From: an uncultured Gammaproteobacteria bacterium
GTDB lineage: Bacteria; Patescibacteriota; Patescibacteriia; Patescibacteriales; UBA12465
Direction: 5' to 3'
NCBI GenBank assembly: GCA_964355275.1
Contig: CAYHCB010000006.1
Span: forward strand, 9,745 to 73,744
DNA length: 64,000 nt
Shown: positions 14,028 to 38,202 of the stretch, one piece after another
Position numbering within the stretch: the stretch's first letter is position 1
Layout of the letters: every line of letters starts with the position of its first letter
Program-made: the position numbers and the translations under genes
The notes under the pieces: generated by a model
Databases searched by the model: none
Told to the model about the DNA's origin: nothing
Seen by the model: only the letters and a program-made list of their open reading frames with translations

Positions 14028-14111
14028 GCCCGAGTGTCGGAACTGGTAGACGAACACGATTCAAAATCGTGCGGCCGAGAGGCCATGCGGGTTCGATTCC
14101 CGCCTTGGGCA
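14028..14111 (+). tRNA. tRNA-Leu (anticodon CAA), class II with long variable arm; CCA not encoded
   Basis: Hand-folded cloverleaf. Acceptor GCCCGAG/CTTGGGC, anticodon stem CACGA/TCGTG with loop TTCAAAA, variable arm CGGCCGAGAGGCCAT, T-arm GCGGG-TTCGATT-CCCGC. Confidence 0.9.
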
Positions 14112-14178
14112 CTTTTTAAAATTAAGAAACTTAGTAACAATCTTGATTATATTGTTGTGATGGTTATTTCCACTGAAG

Positions 14179-21790: not shown

Positions 21791-22167
21791 TTAGCAGGGC
21801 AAGCTGTAAGCCGGATTCTGTCCATTAGAGTAAACTCTAATAGGATGATCATTTATCTGGTCCTACTGTTACCAATAGGATCTGGCGGACCACTTTTTTT
21901 CTTATTCAATTGAATAAGAATTTGTCCTTGCTCCAGGCAGGGTTTACCGCGAATCTAGCGTCACCGCTAGTCGAAAAAAGTAGCCAAACAAGTTGACACC
22001 CCCTTTCTTTTCACCTTTCGTTTCAGCAAGCTGAAACTAGTATAGTCTCTGTGGCACTTTCCCTAAGGTTACCCTTGGTGGACGTTATCCACTGCCCTTT
22101 TTGATGGAGTCCGGACTTTCCTCTTCATAATTATAAAAATTATAAAGCGATCATCCGCTTACCCTAA
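21791..22167 (-). ncRNA. rnpB: RNase P RNA (bacterial type A-like)
   Basis: Minus strand carries GAGGAAAGUCCGGACUCC, GGUAAACCCUGCCUGGAGCAAGG and ACAGAAUCCGGCUUA. Ends pair as P1 (UUAGGGUAAGC with GCUUGCCC..UAA). Confidence 0.85.
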
Positions 22168-26957: not shown

Positions 26958-26978
26958 TTTTAGAAAAGTAATTTAAGT

Positions 26979-29144: not shown

Positions 29145-29236
29145 AATAGTAAAAGATTATAAAGTGTAGGACTAATTAAATACTGGATATATTTTAGCAT
29201 TAGTTTAGAAAAAAGCAAAAAATAAAGTAAAAACAA

Positions 29237-29260
29237 AAAGAGCCCCCGAAGGGGCTCTTT
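29237..29260 (-). terminator. Strong intrinsic terminator after the S-layer-like gene
   Basis: 10-bp stem AAAGAGCCCC/GGGGCTCTTT. Loop reads UUCG on the minus strand, followed by TTGTTTTTAC. Confidence 0.7.
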
Positions 29261-29291
29261 TGTAAACACTGGATCAATAAACTAAATAATA

Positions 29292-32200
29292 TTAGTTAAT
29301 TGACATAGTTTGAGTGTCAGATGGTAAACCATTGACTCTGTAACTATTAAACCAGTAATTGTTTGCATCAGTGTTAGAAGCACTATCAGTCCATGTTAAT
29401 GAAGTGAAAGCAGGTGTTAACAAGGTACCAGCAGCATAAGCAGCTTCTGCTATGCTTGTGCTTACAGATTCACGGTTACTACCAGTAACAGTTGTTACAA
29501 GGATAACTTCAAAAGTCTTTGAAGTACCAGCAGCAACAATTTCTGGAGTAGTTGTACCGAAATCAACAAAGATTTGGGTAGCGGAAGTAGTAGAAGTAAC
29601 AGCTTTAGCTACACCATTAACCTTAATAGCGTTAGAAGTGGTAGCTAATGTTACGCTAGCTGTCTTGGTGTAATCCAAGGCAATTCTACTAACTTTTACA
29701 TCAGCATTAGAATCTGCAGTTACAGTGAATTTAGCAACTACGGAATTACCACTAGTTAAAGTAGTATTAGGTAATGCAAGTAAAGCAACTGTAGGAACAG
29801 TTTTTCTAATACGGAATTCGTTAGCAACTACAGATAAACCTGTAGTGTAAGTTAAATCACTATTTGAAGATTTAAACTTAACACTGTTAACTTGAAGTTT
29901 TAAGTAAGCATTGGTAGCGCTTTCGTCGTTATCAATGTTATTTAAAACAGCTTTAATTGTTAACTTCTTAGATCCATCAGCAGGAACAACGATAGCATTG
30001 TTATTAATAACAAACTTAGCCTCTCCATTGAAAGGAGTTACTGTATCGATCGCAGTTGAATTTCCTTCTACATATAATTTGTAAGAAGAAATTCTAGGAT
30101 CGGTAGTAGTAATAGTAGATGTACCAGTAGTACTAGCATTAACAACTGTTAATTCAGTTACATTAGCACTATCATTTGTAGCAACTAACTTAAATTGAGC
30201 AACTGATTGTTCAACTGAAGGTTTAGAAGCTAAAATAGCGCTTACTGGAGAATCACCATCCTTAGTAATACCTAAAGTACCAGCACCTACAACAGTAAAT
30301 TTAGCTGTTACTGGGGTACCAGAAACAGAAACTGTTTTACCACGAGAATCTTCAGCAGTAAATGTTGAAAGCATTTTAATAGAACCAGTAGCGGCAGTAT
30401 CAATAGATCCTTTAAGTTCGATTGTCTTAGTTTGGTTATCAGCTACAGAAATAGATAATGAAGAGAAGGTGGCGCCGGTTGTACCAAAATCTTTAGTAGA
30501 ACCAACTTGTACGCCGTCCATATATAACTTCATATCATAAATACTAGAAGCTAAAACAGTATTGTTAGTTGTTGAAGCGATATCAATTTGAGTGATTTTT
30601 ACAGTGTCATTTGTAGCTTTAACTGTAAATTTACCTAAAGAAATATCAGATGTACCAATAACAACATTCTTATCAGAATAACCATCGCTGCGGATTGCTG
30701 ACAAAGCAGCACCAGAAACAGTGATGCTAGCACCAGTAGCGGTACCAGTTATATCACCTTCAGCAACAGCATTTTGAGATAATACGTATTCTGGAGTATC
30801 TAATAAGTGAGAACTCTTGTTCAAACTTGCTTTAAATACAGCGGAAGTAGTAGTAGCATTTGATTTTACATCAACAGTAACCTTAATTTCATTGTCCCCC
30901 TTGTTTAAAGAAAGAGTTGATGAAAGAGTTGTGGTAGCTGCAGCTGTAATAGGGTCATAAGAATCAAGTAAAGCGCCGTTAACGTAAACCTTTACGTTTT
31001 CAAAAGCGTCTACATTTGAGAAATCAGTATTAATTCTCAAACCATCAGCTACGATAGCCTCATCAGCCTTTACATTAGCTAATAAAGCAACAACGGCCTT
31101 GGTTCCTTTGATAACTGTAACATCAGAAGGAGATGTGGATTTCTTAGAAACAGAAACTACGCCTGATTTGATAGTTAAGTTAGCAACTTGAACTAAAGAT
31201 GCATCTTGCACTTTAACACCAAAACCATTTGTAAGTTCATTACCATTAAAATCTTCAATCTTATTTAATGATAGAACTACATTGTTACTTGTTGCAGTGT
31301 TTTCTTTAGCAATAACATCACCTTTAATAGCAAAAATCTGGTCACCATCATCTTTTAACATGGTTAAACCACCATTACTAAAGGTAAAAGTAATATATTT
31401 ACCAGAAATAGCTGCAGTAGCTACTTTTTTACCATTATTTTCAAGATAGGCATTCATGATAACTTTAGCTAAATCTTCATCACCAGAATTTTTAAACATA
31501 GCGCTCTTTAGAACGATATCTCTAGTGTTTGAAGCAAAATTAACAGTAAATTTACCTAATTGAACGTTCTCGTCACCGACATTAACGTTTACAGCAGCGC
31601 CTCCTTCATCTAATAAAACTTCAGTAACGGAATAATCTGTTGGGGACATTAAATTTCCATTAATAGGGAAAGAACCGGAGATAGCGGCAGCAGTAGCACT
31701 AACTGCAGAAGCAGAAGCGATACTTAAACCAATATTACCAGAACCTGTATTAGTGGATGGGAAAGAAGCGATTAAATCTAAAGTAACTGTTTGACCAGCA
31801 CCAACTGTTAGGGCTGGAGAGAAAGTCAAAATAGATTCATCATTGGAATTCATAGACTTCTTAGAAGCTACGATAGTACCATTTTGTTCTGCCCAAACTT
31901 TATCAATGTTAGTGTAAGCGGAAAGACCAATTCTTTTAACAGTAATAGAGTTAATAGTAACAGCACCATCATTAGCGGCAGTTAAGTTAACTTTAGCCAT
32001 TGGGATGCGAGCACCATTTTTTGGAACAGAAGCGCCAGCTGGAGTAGCAGCACTTAAAGAAGCTGTTAAACCAGAACCGGTCACAATAGGACCTGTACCA
32101 CCTACTTGAGCATCATAGTTTAAACTTTCAGCGCCTGTAACAGCATTTCCAGAAGCTGTAATAGTGTTGGAAATAGTGATTACATTAGCGAAGTTAAATC

Positions 32201-32783
32201 TATTTGCATTGAAAGCAGCTTCGTTAGCAATTGAACGATAGTTAGCGCCATCATATAAATAGACAGCACCTGAACCGGCATTCTTTACTAAAGTACCTGC
32301 AGGGATTTGACCATTAGCTAAAGCTGTACCAATAGTGTAGTTAGTAAAGAAAGCATCAGAAACATCGATAACTCTCTTTGCCCAATTTGCACCAAAGATA
32401 GCAATAGCATCAGCCTCACTAGAAATCTTTCTTAAAACACCGTTGGCTTCAACAGCGTAAACAGAAGGATCAGTTGTGATTTTAACTAATTTTGTACCAG
32501 GTCTTACCACAACGTTAGCTCCTAATGGATAAGATGCTAATTCTGAAGCAGAAATAGTAACTACACCACTAAAATCATTGTGCCAAGAGAAGAATACAGA
32601 TTCACTAGGGAAAACATATCTCTTTCCATCGTTGCCTAAGAAATAAACAGCTGATAAGCCGTCCATTTTAATGAGATCACCAGCTTGAGGAGCAGCTGCA
32701 TTGGCAAAAGAACCAATACCAGTCATTCCTAATACTGTTAATGTCATTACGCCGATGGTTAAGAATTTGCGTAAATTTTTCAT
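29292..32783 (-). CDS. Giant secreted surface (S-layer-like) protein with repeated beta-sandwich-type modules
   Basis: Start moved to ATG 32783 (MKNLRKF... classical signal peptide ending ANA/AAP). T/S/A/V/N-rich. At least 5 recurrences of a (G/A)KFTV.A.ND...V....I module signature. Confidence 0.7.
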   Translation of the reverse strand: MKNLRKFLTIGVMTLTVLGMTGIGSFANAAAPQAGDLIKMDGLSAVYFLGNDGKRYVFPSESVFFSWHNDFSGVVTISASELASYPLGANVVVRPGTKLVKITTDPSVYAVEANGVLRKISSEADAIAIFGANWAKRVIDVSDAFFTNYTIGTALANGQIPAGTLVKNAGSGAVYLYDGANYRSIANEAAFNANRFNFANVITISNTITASGNAVTGAESLNYDAQVGGTGPIVTGSGLTASLSAATPAGASVPKNGARIPMAKVNLTAANDGAVTINSITVKRIGLSAYTNIDKVWAEQNGTIVASKKSMNSNDESILTFSPALTVGAGQTVTLDLIASFPSTNTGSGNIGLSIASASAVSATAAAISGSFPINGNLMSPTDYSVTEVLLDEGGAAVNVNVGDENVQLGKFTVNFASNTRDIVLKSAMFKNSGDEDLAKVIMNAYLENNGKKVATAAISGKYITFTFSNGGLTMLKDDGDQIFAIKGDVIAKENTATSNNVVLSLNKIEDFNGNELTNGFGVKVQDASLVQVANLTIKSGVVSVSKKSTSPSDVTVIKGTKAVVALLANVKADEAIVADGLRINTDFSNVDAFENVKVYVNGALLDSYDPITAAATTTLSSTLSLNKGDNEIKVTVDVKSNATTTSAVFKASLNKSSHLLDTPEYVLSQNAVAEGDITGTATGASITVSGAALSAIRSDGYSDKNVVIGTSDISLGKFTVKATNDTVKITQIDIASTTNNTVLASSIYDMKLYMDGVQVGSTKDFGTTGATFSSLSISVADNQTKTIELKGSIDTAATGSIKMLSTFTAEDSRGKTVSVSGTPVTAKFTVVGAGTLGITKDGDSPVSAILASKPSVEQSVAQFKLVATNDSANVTELTVVNASTTGTSTITTTDPRISSYKLYVEGNSTAIDTVTPFNGEAKFVINNNAIVVPADGSKKLTIKAVLNNIDNDESATNAYLKLQVNSVKFKSSNSDLTYTTGLSVVANEFRIRKTVPTVALLALPNTTLTSGNSVVAKFTVTADSNADVKVSRIALDYTKTASVTLATTSNAIKVNGVAKAVTSTTSATQIFVDFGTTTPEIVAAGTSKTFEVILVTTVTGSNRESVSTSIAEAAYAAGTLLTPAFTSLTWTDSASNTDANNYWFNSYRVNGLPSDTQTMSIN

Positions 32784-33120
32784 ATTTGTAATTAAGGATT
32801 CGAAAGTTGAATGTCCAAACAATTTTAGTCTGAACAATTCCTCTCTCGATATTTATTCGGTTTAAGCTACCATCTGAAAGATAGACCATTTAGGTACATC
32901 AATCGGAATCCCGCTTCCCTAATCGCGCTAGAATTGCGGACTAGTGAAAAGCTAAATCGATGTACACTTGGATATCTCACGATTTAAGCTTATCCCCGAA
33001 TTTTTTTTGTTTTTAATAGAGCGAAACCAATCCTTTGCAGGACCCGACCCTTTACGGGGTTTCACTGATCGCATTTAGCAAGCTAAACGCAGATCTGTTA
33101 ATTTATCTCACACCGTTTCA
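32784..33120 (-). promoter_or_regulatory. Long structured 5' leader (and possible promoter) of the S-layer-like gene
   Basis: 360-nt non-coding gap, GC-richer than other spacers. Several helices whose G-U pairs exist only on the minus strand. TGAAAC hexamer at 33115-33120 (minus). Confidence 0.45.
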
Positions 33121-33199
33121 CCAAATTAGATGATATTAATCTTCCAGAAAAGGGTGTCGAGATAAGAGATAAACTAACAGCTCGGCGCTTTGGCCTTTG

Positions 33200-33943
33200 T
33201 TACTTAATTAAATCATTTACTTCTTTTAATTTATCAAGAGCTTCAGTATATTTCTTTTCATCAAACAAAGTTTTTGCTTCTTCTAAAATTTTAGTTGTAG
33301 TAGAGGTAGTGGCGACAACAACTTCATTATTAACTTCAGTGCCTGCTAAAGAAACACCGGTCTCATCTTTCTTTAAAGTGGCGCTAAAAACTTCTGTACT
33401 GCCAGTAGCTGAACCGACTGTAGAAATTTCTTGTACAACTGGTTTTTCTAATCTAGCCACACTCTTTCGGACAGTCTTCATTTCTTTTTCAAACTTAACA
33501 TTTAGGGCCGCAATTTCCTCTTTATTGTCAAAACTTGGATCAGCTAAAACAGTGGTTATATCCTGAGCATTACTAGCCGCAAATTGTCCGGCCATTTTGT
33601 CTCGATCATCGGAATTAAAAATAGTAGTTAATTTTGCTTGTTCAGAGATTTCCCGAGCGATATATAATGATTGGTTAGGTTTAGTCTTAGCTAAAAGTAA
33701 ATGGCCGTAAGCGCTGGAAGTAACCACAAATAACATTAAAGAGGCTAAGGCAATAGCTGGAGCAGAGGCAGTTTTTAAAGCGCTCTGAAAATTGATAAAA
33801 AAAGATGACCAGGCCGACGAATTTGTCGCTCCGGAGTTAGAAATTTGGGTAAATAAAGAATCCCGATTAGCTTTTAACCAGCTAGTATCGGGTTTGATTT
33901 CTCTAAGATTACCTAATTTTTTGATAAGATCACGGTCAGTCAT
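33200..33943 (-). CDS. Membrane-anchored anti-sigma-like protein (DUF5667-like, tentative)
   Basis: Downstream of the ECF sigma. Short cytoplasmic N-terminus, one TM (PAIALASLMLFVVTSSAY), extracytoplasmic helical/T-rich domain. Confidence 0.5.
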   Translation of the reverse strand: MTDRDLIKKLGNLREIKPDTSWLKANRDSLFTQISNSGATNSSAWSSFFINFQSALKTASAPAIALASLMLFVVTSSAYGHLLLAKTKPNQSLYIAREISEQAKLTTIFNSDDRDKMAGQFAASNAQDITTVLADPSFDNKEEIAALNVKFEKEMKTVRKSVARLEKPVVQEISTVGSATGSTEVFSATLKKDETGVSLAGTEVNNEVVVATTSTTTKILEEAKTLFDEKKYTEALDKLKEVNDLIK

Positions 33944-34031: not shown

Positions 34032-34613
34032 TTAATTTTTTTGATCTTCTTCGATTAAGTCTTTAAGCGCGGCTAGTGAACGATGCAGTAAAACCCGAAT
34101 ATTACCCTTAGTTTTACCAGTTACTTCACTAATTTCATCAATATTTAAATCATTTACGAACTTTAAAACAATTACCTCGCGGTATTCTTCCTTAAGTAAA
34201 GGTAATTTGCTCTTTATTCTATTTAAATCAGCATTTCGGTCCATATCAGCCTCTAAATCTTTGCCTTCATCAGCAATATCTATCGGATGAGCTTCATCAT
34301 CTAAAGAAATTTCTAATTTATTACCAGTTTCCCGATAATAATCAACTATCGAGGTGCGTGCTATTTTATATAAAAGAGCTCTTAAAGTACTACTACTAGT
34401 TAAGCTATTATTTTGGATATGATTCCAAGTTTTTAAAAATATCATGGAAGTCAAATCTTTAGCTTCCTCAGACTCACCAACCTTAAAATAAACAAAACGA
34501 TAGATATCGCCGGCAAAATCATCGTAAACCTTAATAAAAGCATCCTTGTCTTTATTTTTAAGACGACTTAAGGTTTGTTTGTCTTTAAATTTCTTAACCA
34601 GTGGTAATGACAT
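34032..34613 (-). CDS. ECF-type sigma-70 family RNA polymerase sigma factor
   Basis: 193 aa; region 2 (DLTSMIFLKTWNHI, ALLYKIARTSIVDYYR) and region 4 (YREVIVLKFVNDLNIDEISEVTGKTKGNIRVLLHRSL). Confidence 0.85.
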   Translation of the reverse strand: MSLPLVKKFKDKQTLSRLKNKDKDAFIKVYDDFAGDIYRFVYFKVGESEEAKDLTSMIFLKTWNHIQNNSLTSSSTLRALLYKIARTSIVDYYRETGNKLEISLDDEAHPIDIADEGKDLEADMDRNADLNRIKSKLPLLKEEYREVIVLKFVNDLNIDEISEVTGKTKGNIRVLLHRSLAALKDLIEEDQKN

Positions 34614-34979
34614 CGGGTATTTAAATGTTTAAATTTTTTAATAAAAAATAAGGAAATTCACTATTTCCCTGCTATATTTTACTTTATTTGTGTCAAAATT
34701 CTAGCATAAGAAGTGATAAATAGCAAGAAAAGCCTAATCTTAAATTGTTTTTTTTTATCTCTTTATTATACGCTAAAAATATAAAAACTCTTCACTTCAA
34801 AATTAATAATACAAAACTCTTCGCTTGTTGATTTGGATATAGTTTTTAACATATACTCCTAGATTACCAGAAAGCGCAATATGTGCTGGCGCATTACCTG
34901 GCCATCTTGACTTTTAAATATAAAAGATTAACAATAAAAATACTTTAGTCTATGATATAATGGACTTAAATATTATTCT

Positions 34980-37823: not shown

Positions 37824-38013
37824 AGCTGTAACAATTTTACTTAATTTACGTATGCTATTTATAAAAGTATATTTAAAACATTAAATAAATCATCACCTTT
37901 CGGGAATTTTTTACCTTATTTTAGATAAACAGTTCCCGGAAGGGCGATAGTCATAAGGCTAATCACGAACTAGGATTGGTCCCCTAGTTTCCCCTTCTTT
38001 AAACAATAAATAT

Positions 38014-38163
38014 ATGTTTAGAGAAATCCTGGGATTCTTACTTGTTCTAGTAATCGTGAAATTTGCCCTCCCACAAGAGATTGGTGGCCTGGTAACGGAA
38101 ATTTTACTTAAAATTTTAACTTTAGTAAAAGATGCCGTCAACCAAGTTGGCCCTTCTCTTTAA
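38014..38163 (+). CDS. Candidate 49-aa small hydrophobic protein (below track cutoff)
   Basis: ATG..TAA translating to MFREILGFLLVLVIVKFALPQEIGGLVTEILLKILTLVKDAVNQVGPSL. Stops 7 nt before a strong terminator. No SD. Confidence 0.3.
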   Translation: MFREILGFLLVLVIVKFALPQEIGGLVTEILLKILTLVKDAVNQVGPSL

Positions 38164-38167
38164 AAAA

Positions 38168-38198
38168 TAAAAAGCTTTCCTAACAGAAAGCTTTTTTC
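38168..38198. terminator. Bidirectional terminator (small ORF / rlmH)
   Basis: Stem AAAGCTTTC/GAAAGCTTT with 6-nt loop, flanked by A- and T-runs. Confidence 0.7.
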
Positions 38199-38202
38199 CT
38201 TT

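Follow-up and report, generated by a model that had tools for sequence, protein, structure and literature searches.

What occupies the space between a surface-protein gene and the gene before it in a 64-kb stretch of metagenomic contig CAYHCB010000006.1, and what might it do for the surface protein? In this stretch (hereafter the window), a 416-nt spacer at positions 32784–33199 is flanked by genes that all lie on the minus strand. In the direction of transcription, a gene for a 247-residue protein (33200..33943, minus strand) precedes it and the surface-protein gene (29292..32783, minus strand; 1163 residues, ATG at 32783) follows it. The spacer contains a structured RNA of ~410 nt (32784–33193, minus strand) whose 5′ edge lies a few bases past the upstream stop codon. 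The RNA has a two-domain, sense-strand fold that lies in cis to the surface-protein gene, is under purifying selection and covaries among relatives. From comparison of these sequences, it probably represents a new family of cis-acting structured leader or intercistronic RNAs of a surface-protein mRNA of Falkowbacteria-type Patescibacteria. The relatives used throughout are 80 loci taken in from 250 metagenome stretches that encode relatives of the protein.

The element is composed of domain D1 (33018..33193), an A-rich linker (33002..33019) and domain D2 (32784..33003), all read on the minus strand. A first-pass annotation, made from the letters of the window, had described a leader of ~300 nt that ends at 33120. 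The element is longer than this because its first helix (P1) and the accompanying apical hairpin extend past 33120 to ~33193. The guanine–cytosine (GC) enrichment described in the same annotation holds, with a GC content of 0.389 compared with 0.16–0.33 for the other spacers except that of the RNase P RNA (0.383). The minimum free energy (MFE) of the sense strand is −138.2 kcal/mol (z = −7.6) and that of the antisense strand is −103.7 kcal/mol (z = −3.5). When 13 spacers of the window are compared on both strands, the leader has the lowest energy per nucleotide (−0.33); the value for the RNase P RNA spacer is −0.29.

The RNA accompanies the surface-protein gene in its relatives. All 71 loci with 220 nt or more of sequence ahead of the ATG contain a D2 core motif, GCGGGAU[UC]C[CU]G, which in every case lies 100–223 nt from the ATG and in the orientation of the gene. 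In the 562 kb of loci, neither strand contains the motif at any other place. By blastn, the full leader is 70–86% identical in eight loci, and short islands are matched in ~40 others. Nucleotide identity of the leader to two close relatives is 86% and 80%, and in the same two relatives the values are 80% for the sigma-factor gene of the locus, 72–73% for the upstream open reading frame (ORF), 81–83% for the first 870 nt of the surface-protein gene and 55–65% for its remainder. Covariance models for D1 (R1) and D2 (R2) give a single match per locus, immediately upstream of the surface-protein gene, and none elsewhere in the window. R2 matches the gene's strand almost exclusively (two weak reverse hits), and R1 gives weaker reverse-strand matches as well, over its long palindromic helix. 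Divergent leaders that are missed by R1 and R2 keep the core motif, most of them keep the AAGGNCGA junction of D1, and they include AT-rich types of ~450 nt and GC-rich types of up to 830 nt. Across the family, leader length is 410–830 nt. Six of the divergent leaders (L024, L022, L029, L042, L017 and L053; 480–830 nt, GC up to 46%) share with the window RNA only the D2 core motif and an AGGTCGA-type junction signature, and the family is therefore much more diverse than R1 and R2 capture.

The conservation does not follow a coding sequence. Sense-strand ORFs of at least 20 codons vary in position, frame and length among 17 leaders, one leader has none, and no conserved small ORF was found that would explain the conservation, a possibility that the first-pass annotation had raised against its own proposal. 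An N-terminal extension of the surface-protein gene from a TTG at 32837 was considered and rejected, as the upstream open frame spans 1–50 codons and is unconserved, and this part of the leader shows the covariation of a hairpin. An origin as a phage or repeat element was rejected as well: the 64-kb window contains a single copy, and viral contigs gave no match to the core motif.

D1 begins with a long hairpin, D1a (33085..33191), which is formed by P1 and an apical hairpin at 33147–33126. P1 pairs 33191–33166 with 33109–33085 to give 22 bp that are 95% paired in 36 sequences. Its 15-bp core (CUGUUAGUUUAUCUC/GAGAUAAAUUAACAG) is almost invariant and includes a conserved G–U pair. In A7, the model-fitted alignment of D1 (36 sequences), the corresponding helix 1 is 95% paired and has nine compensatory pairs in the outer part. 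P1 is thus a near-perfect RNA duplex of at least ~20 bp between two cistrons, as RNase III processing sites require, and in L074, L067, L009 and L014 its start coincides with, or overlaps, the stop codon of the preceding ORF. A second hairpin, P1c, pairs 33095–33083 with 33078–33067 and forms in the MFE fold.

The remainder of D1 is a three-way junction, D1b (33020..33066), in which an outer helix (33066–33060 with 33026–33020) encloses two hairpins. Hairpin 1 (33058–33048) is closed by CCC/GGG (33058–33056 with 33050–33048), and hairpin 2 (33043–33030) by GUCCU/AGGAU (33043–33039 with 33034–33030). Helices 5–7 of A7, which correspond to D1b, are 93–99% paired and show compensatory changes in 15 of 15 pairs. 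The junction sequence AAGGNCGA is conserved, and the AAGGTCGA signature of D1b is kept even in the most distant leader variants. The GCAA loop of hairpin 2, which had been taken for a GNRA loop, is not conserved as GNRA in relatives. D1b is followed by the A-rich linker (CUCUAUUAAAAACAAAAAAAA), which is unpaired in both the MFE and the consensus folds and occurs in relatives in the conserved forms CUAUUAAAAAC or UAUAAAC.

D2 is a closed body (32855..33001) followed by a terminal hairpin. The body is closed by a helix that pairs 33001–32996 with 32860–32855, and inner helices are predicted in the window's clade at 32992–32987/32868–32863, 32983–32981/32874–32872 and 32972–32970/32888–32886. It is also backed by helices 1–4 of A8, the model-fitted alignment of D2 (41 distinct sequences). 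At its center, the D2 core (32894..32965) consists of the 11-bp helix B (32965–32955 with 32904–32894), a core stem (32952–32938 with 32925–32913) and a mini-hairpin, GG-GAUU-CC (32912–32905). The invariant motif GCGGGAUUCCG (32914–32904) forms the junction hairpin of D2. The terminal hairpin (32800..32849) contains 19 bp and has conserved loop and closing bases, GUU...ACUA..UGU...GAC; in A8 it corresponds to helices 10–11, which are 93–94% paired with 14 compensatory pairs. In L007, L016, L044 and ~20 others, an extra conserved module of ~70 nt (GCAACACGCGC..GGCUGGCAGAACUU..AGAUCAGUCAGCC..CGCCUUAAGCC) is inserted at the tip of the D2 stem, between CUCCAG and CUGG. The module is present in most relatives beyond the window's clade and is shortened in L045 and L081; it has been lost from the window's clade.

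Compensatory change is found in nearly every helix outside the core of P1. Pairing percentages were compared with those of slid controls. RNAalifold places 113 pairs on the eight close leaders, and 29 of these show compensatory changes. A7 is 92% paired (slid controls 37–46%), and compensatory changes occur at 29 of its 50 pairs; A8 is 90.6% paired (slid controls 30–51%), with such changes at 44 of 63. Because alignments fitted to a model are biased toward the structure of that model, covariation was re-tested on A9 and A10, plain MAFFT alignments that are blind to structure. On A9, helix B is 99.7% paired with compensatory changes at 4 of 11 pairs (slid controls 18–43%) and the D2 closing helix is 90.6% paired with 4 of 5 (9–57%). 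On A10, an extension of P1 is 85.9% paired with 4 of 8 (23–56%) and hairpin P1c is 92.9% paired with 5 of 7 (16–43%). RNAalifold applied to the two MAFFT alignments independently recovers helix B, the GCUUU:GGAGC and CCAGC:GCUGG stems, the mini-hairpin, the terminal hairpin, P1 and the apical hairpin. Family-wide, there are at least 12 distinct sequence pairs of the D2 strands S2 and S4, all fully complementary. Conserved G–U pairs in A7 and A8 mark the sense strand. The earlier proposal of a functional RNA that is strand-specific and oriented like the gene, for which conservation and covariation in relatives had been named as the check, is thus borne out by three agreeing lines: the G–U pairs, the strand-specific model hits and strong covariation in a strongly conserved leader.

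The same data bear on whether the conserved unit is DNA rather than RNA. The leader could be the homology arm of a 5′ cassette that also includes the N-terminal coding region, comparable to the cassette swapping of the Campylobacter fetus sap system, or an inverted repeat bound by a protein. Such an element would account for the pattern of identity between relatives, which stands at 80–86% over the leader and the gene's initial ~870 nt and at 55–65% over the rest, and for the 15-bp core of P1, which is almost invariant and whose rare changes are uncompensated. However, compensatory changes occur in nearly every other helix, in loci whose proteins are only 34–60% identical, and the conserved G–U pairs and the twofold stronger fold of the sense strand favor RNA, as does the restriction of R2 to a single strand, bar its two weak reverse hits. 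The covariation therefore contradicts a DNA-level element as the sole explanation. We regard this alternative as highly improbable; a role in recombination may coexist with the RNA role, and it cannot account for these data.

Within D2, helix B has a competitor. Helix A is an 11-bp helix with one bulged U that pairs 32991–32980 with 32959–32949; its 5′ strand, S1 (32980..32991), pairs with S2 (32959–32949). Helices A and B overlap at 32955–32959 (CGAUU), and helix A also competes with the GCUUU:GGAGC stem and with an S1:S3 pairing. The three elements folded in the first-pass annotation, a helix enclosing two hairpins in D1b and helices A and B with their shared CGAUU, are all found on the minus strand where it had placed them. 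Of the two competing helices, B covaries, and A is backed by retained complementarity rather than by covariation. S1:S2 complementarity is retained in 27 of 32 leaders and absent in five (mean z = −2.1 versus shuffles), with duplex energies of −9 to −18 kcal/mol that are similar to those of helix B. On A9, helix A is 75% paired (slid controls 25–55%) and shows just two compensatory pairs because S2 is nearly invariant. S1 resembles S4, a mimic arrangement. When each state is forced, state B is more stable than state A by a mean of 5.6 kcal/mol, and the start codon region (−18 to +6) has a predicted accessibility of 0.61 in state A and 0.63 in state B. Helix A is therefore a plausible alternative pairing in most relatives, as judged from complementarity, and one tied to no output.

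A second overlap occurs at the 5′ end, where the P1 extension and P1c share 33089–33093 and both covary. For most relatives, the parts of the two helices that have good support share hardly any bases, and together they would give an H-type pseudoknot. The window's clade differs in having a longer P1c, which cannot coexist with the P1 extension.

Two competing helix pairs raise the question of a riboswitch-like sensor, in which D2, and perhaps D1, would bind a small molecule, ion or protein that shifts helix A versus B or the P1 extension versus P1c and thereby alters expression of the surface-protein gene. The covarying fold resembles an aptamer in its multi-helix junctions and its invariant junction and loop bases, the S1–S2 complementarity in 27 of 32 leaders and the mimicry of S4 by S1 are in its favor, and the 5′ end supplies the second overlapping pair in which both helices covary. 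What such a sensor would act on is harder to find. The leader contains no intrinsic terminator (32600–33400 scanned, with a scan that detects clear terminators downstream) and no Shine-Dalgarno (SD) sequence that could be sequestered, and predicted accessibility of the start is the same in the A and B states; a riboswitch or attenuator would therefore lack an expression platform. In addition, state B is favored by a mean of 5.6 kcal/mol, helix A shows nearly no covariation (its S2 strand being invariant) and is missing in five of 32 leaders, and the controlled gene encodes a structural surface protein rather than a metabolic or transport function. The riboswitch or attenuator mechanism suggested in the first-pass annotation is thus not supported in that form, and we consider a sensor of this kind unlikely.

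The start of the gene appears open in every fold that we examined. The start region (32781..32799) consists of ~16 AU-rich bases and the ATG; it is unpaired in all folds, with a predicted unpaired probability of 0.81–0.84 in the window, and has no SD motif. SD motifs are also absent from the 30 nt upstream of 53 ORFs in the window, where the sequences are merely AU-rich, and initiation of translation in this organism therefore appears to be SD-independent. A pairing between the stretch before the ATG and a strand of D1b hairpin 2 (AAGGAUU/AAUCCUU) can be drawn in the window; it is absent in relatives and is therefore regarded as chance.

Transcription of the RNA is expected to come from upstream. 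There is no terminator after the 247-residue ORF, and P1 lies at the stop codon of that ORF; the RNA would therefore be transcribed from within or upstream of it. No consistently placed sigma70-type promoter was found upstream of D1 across 33 loci, and inspection by eye of the loops and linker gave no convincing −35/−10 pair of the extracytoplasmic function (ECF) type. A weak TTAAAA-N16-TAAAAT arrangement is present at the 3′ end of the upstream ORF in ~8 of 33 loci and may be a promoter or a result of codon bias. Action in cis is indicated by the single copy per locus, which always has the orientation of the gene and immediately precedes it, with no terminator between the two.

These features also bear on whether the RNA is an independent, trans-acting non-coding RNA, or the RNA part of a ribonucleoprotein, that happens to be encoded beside the surface-protein gene. 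In size and conservation it is like the large non-coding RNAs, and its GC content and fold energy match those of the RNase P spacer. It has, however, neither a promoter nor a terminator of its own, its orientation is invariably that of the gene, its last hairpin lies ~15–30 nt from the ATG, and its core motif is present in 71 of 71 loci. The window and each related locus searched contain one copy, tied to this gene family. We consider an independent RNA to be very improbable.

A further possibility is that the nascent RNA binds the elongating polymerase and promotes processive antitermination across the 3.5-kb gene, like Bacillus EAR or the put RNAs of phage HK022. The element is operon-internal and heads a very long gene that has no SD signals for coupling with ribosomes, its fold is complex and conserved, it lacks a platform built on a terminator or ribosome-binding site, and no terminator separates it from the upstream genes. 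On the other side, no leader variant tested matches an Rfam model (Rfam 15 being assumed to include models of these RNAs), and the surface-protein gene contains no strong intrinsic terminator that would need to be overridden, the sole in-gene match being a 5-bp stem at 31515–31502. EAR and put are also small, and the window element is ~3–6 times larger. Antitermination therefore seems to us an improbable function for this RNA.

We tentatively favor, at a strength somewhat short of probable, a post-transcriptional leader or intercistronic element that governs the fate of the surface-protein mRNA. Transcripts would enter the RNA from upstream, either by read-through from the sigma and anti-sigma genes or from a promoter within the terminal part of the upstream ORF, and the effect of the RNA on the mRNA that carries it would then be post-transcriptional. 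As the duplex at the 5′ edge, P1 may be a processing or 5′-protection element, the action of which would uncouple an abundant, stable surface-protein message from a regulator message of low abundance. A conserved factor, most likely a protein, would recognize the invariant junctions. Being self-contained, the fold could keep the SD-less, AU-rich start region open to ribosomes, in line with predicted unpaired values of 0.6–0.85 in a genome without SD sites. On the simplest view, the competition of helices A and B would be an intermediate of co-transcriptional folding rather than a switch operated by a ligand. The mRNA-stabilizing leader proposed in the first-pass annotation is a plausible form of this function.

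Several points weigh against this account. A stabilizer needs only a 5′ stem–loop, which leaves a conserved multi-junction fold of 410–830 nt unexplained. Invariant unpaired bases combined with the constraint on multiple junctions argue instead for specific recognition, by a partner that is still putative. Both overlapping helix pairs (A/B and P1 extension/P1c) are kept across the family and could constitute a genuine switch. That the downstream protein belongs to an S-layer is suggested by its architecture only. A bolder possibility, which we consider rather doubtful, is that this is a hitherto undescribed class of large (410–830 nt), ornate RNA specific to the Patescibacteria. A true sensor, or a catalytic or ribonucleoprotein core, would then be built from the invariant junctions (GCGGGAUUCCG, AAGGNCGA) and the two sets of competing or pseudoknotted helices. 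Through the ECF sigma/anti-sigma pair next to it, this core would make production of the hypervariable surface layer depend on a signal from the cell or from contact with a host. If this were true, the ornate RNA would be more than a passive stabilizing leader.

The element has no counterpart among catalogued RNAs. In Rfam 15, no model hits the region at the gathering threshold, in agreement with the first-pass annotation, and in a permissive scan (E ≤ 10) all hits have E ≥ 4.9 and lie far below gathering. In 15 related loci and in two divergent leader variants, too, the hits were of chance level and none was at the gathering score, and our literature search gave no description of such an RNA from Patescibacteria, Falkowbacteria or Parcubacteria. 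Because no catalogued RNA family matches, the element is probably a new control element.

Among known systems, the RNA would be closest in its working to the long stabilizing 5′ leaders of S-layer genes. The slpA-type leaders reach a few hundred nucleotides at most. Like those of L. acidophilus and L. crispatus, the window element would be a long untranslated leader with a stable predicted fold, placed just upstream of a putative major surface-layer gene, and in Lactobacillus the structure of the 5′ untranslated region underlies the 14–15 min half-life of S-layer mRNAs (PMC3666127). The window element differs from slpA leaders in being far larger (410–830 nt across its family) and more constrained in sequence, with two multi-junction domains, invariant junction motifs and covariation that spans a wide group of Patescibacteria. 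It also has no SD site and begins at an upstream stop codon, not at a mapped transcription start site; the covarying 22-bp P1 is the extreme 5′ edge of the conserved region, where the end of a transcript or a processed end may lie. With riboswitches such as the T-box and cobalamin classes, it shares location in cis, strand specificity, a covarying multi-helix fold, invariant junction nucleotides and competing helices; it differs in lacking a terminator or start-sequestering platform and any Rfam hit, and in preceding a gene for a structural surface protein.

Like the EAR element of Bacillus and putL/putR of phage HK022, the window element is operon-internal and structured, and it lies ahead of a long cell-surface gene and has no classical expression platform. 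It is several times larger than these and has no Rfam match, and the scan for intrinsic terminators showed none inside the gene that it would have to override. RNase III hairpins, as in the T7 early mRNA and rnc/pnp, resemble P1 in being duplexes of ~22 bp right after an upstream cistron, in a setting where the downstream gene needs a very different level of expression. Substrates of RNase III need no invariant sequence, and P1 differs in having an invariant core and in being just one module of a larger conserved fold. Its scale and complexity are like those of the large ornate non-coding RNAs OLE, GOLLD, ROOL and raiA, which also exceed 400 nt and have many covarying helices, invariant loops, a lineage-restricted distribution and obscure function. 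No Rfam model matches the window element, however, and those RNAs are free-standing genes or occur in other contexts, whereas the window RNA is fixed 5′ of one gene family.

The Patescibacteria (Candidate Phyla Radiation) make up a large share of bacterial diversity, have tiny genomes and have almost no characterized regulatory RNAs. That a reduced genome with very short spacers spends 410–830 nt on an element conserved at least as well as the sigma gene therefore argues for an important function. The RNA heads the gene of the apparent main surface protein, the interface that episymbionts present to hosts and phages, and would offer a direct handle on control of that surface. As a new family it is well supported: dozens of its pairs covary, and it may include a pseudoknot and a switch. 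It also bears on how translation and mRNA stability are organized in bacteria without SD sites.

The surface protein is predicted by eye to carry a signal peptide and to be secreted. It has no sequence match in Pfam, NCBIfam or the PDB, and no sequence homology to known S-layer proteins. An AlphaFold2 model (mean predicted local distance difference test score 82) contains an N-terminal α/β domain (residues 35–220), a flexible linker and ~8 Ig-like β-sandwich domains, for which Foldseek finds only generic Ig arrays in the PDB. Compared with the relative at L051 (3001–6471), the first ~290 residues are ~90% identical and the other ~870 far less so, giving 40% overall; the corresponding nucleotide identities are 81% and 55%. 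This mosaicism suggests diversifying selection on, or cassette replacement of, an exposed Ig-like array. Such a combination of a conserved anchor and an exposed, variable array is typical of S-layer or major surface proteins, and it is reasonable to regard the protein as S-layer-like.

Hundreds of homologues of the surface protein were found, and the named ones belong to Candidatus Falkowbacteria or to Patescibacteria. L001 (CAZPKN010000023.1) is labelled as an uncultured Gammaproteobacteria metagenome-assembled genome and protein P0097 as Bacteroidales; since all other named homologues are from Patescibacteria or Falkowbacteria, these two labels are probably binning errors. A scan of genome contigs returned one locus, which ends at the contig end before the 5′ end of the gene and the leader. 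An exact-sequence lookup of the window's 1163-residue protein returned no record.

The genes upstream of the RNA are conserved in order. The 247-residue protein is syntenic in 52 loci and has the appearance of a single-pass membrane protein of the anti-sigma type. Among relatives, an ORF of 250–330 residues precedes the surface-protein gene in nearly all loci with enough flanking sequence, and the spacer between the two is 410–530 nt in nearly all loci and up to ~830 nt in a few. The C-terminus of the 247-residue protein (..DKLKEV.E.IK*) and its AT-rich codons (AAATTAAAAGAAGT...ATTAAATAA; 33200–33260) are conserved up to the first RNA helix. Further upstream, an ECF-type sigma-factor gene (34032..34613, minus strand) matches Pfam Sigma70_r2/r4 and scores above the cutoff of NCBIfam sigma70-ECF; it is syntenic in 48 loci at 43–88% identity. 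The conserved unit is thus ordered as ECF sigma factor, membrane (anti-sigma-like) protein, RNA, surface protein and terminator. The last of these is a strong intrinsic terminator directly after the surface-protein gene (29236..29261, minus strand), in which a U tract comes after an 11-bp stem with six G–C pairs.

A canonical sigma70-type promoter (TTGCTA, 17 nt, TGcTAGAAT) lies upstream of the ECF sigma gene. The 5′ leader of that gene (34625–34726, minus strand) contains the promoter and then a GC-rich hairpin with a U tract (CAGGGAAAU...AUUUCCUUAUUUUUUAUUAAAA), and the hairpin and UUAUUUUUUGUUAAAA are conserved in >20 related loci. This hairpin looks like a terminator-type attenuator that would control the whole unit. 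A second textbook terminator is located at 26961–26930 (minus strand) after the next gene, which encodes a Wzy_C/TPR (O-antigen-ligase-like) protein and is syntenic with the surface-protein gene in 18 loci. As each gene is followed by a terminator, the surface-protein and Wzy_C/TPR genes are separate transcription units.

The only RNAs of the window recognized by Rfam or ARAGORN are a class A RNase P RNA (21791–22166, minus strand, 252 bits) and tRNA-Leu(CAA) (14028–14112, plus strand). A second structured spacer of 379 nt occurs at 37824–38202 on the plus strand (GC 0.327, MFE −101.6 kcal/mol, z = −5.6); it has no Rfam match at the gathering score and ends in a strong, bidirectional terminator-like hairpin.

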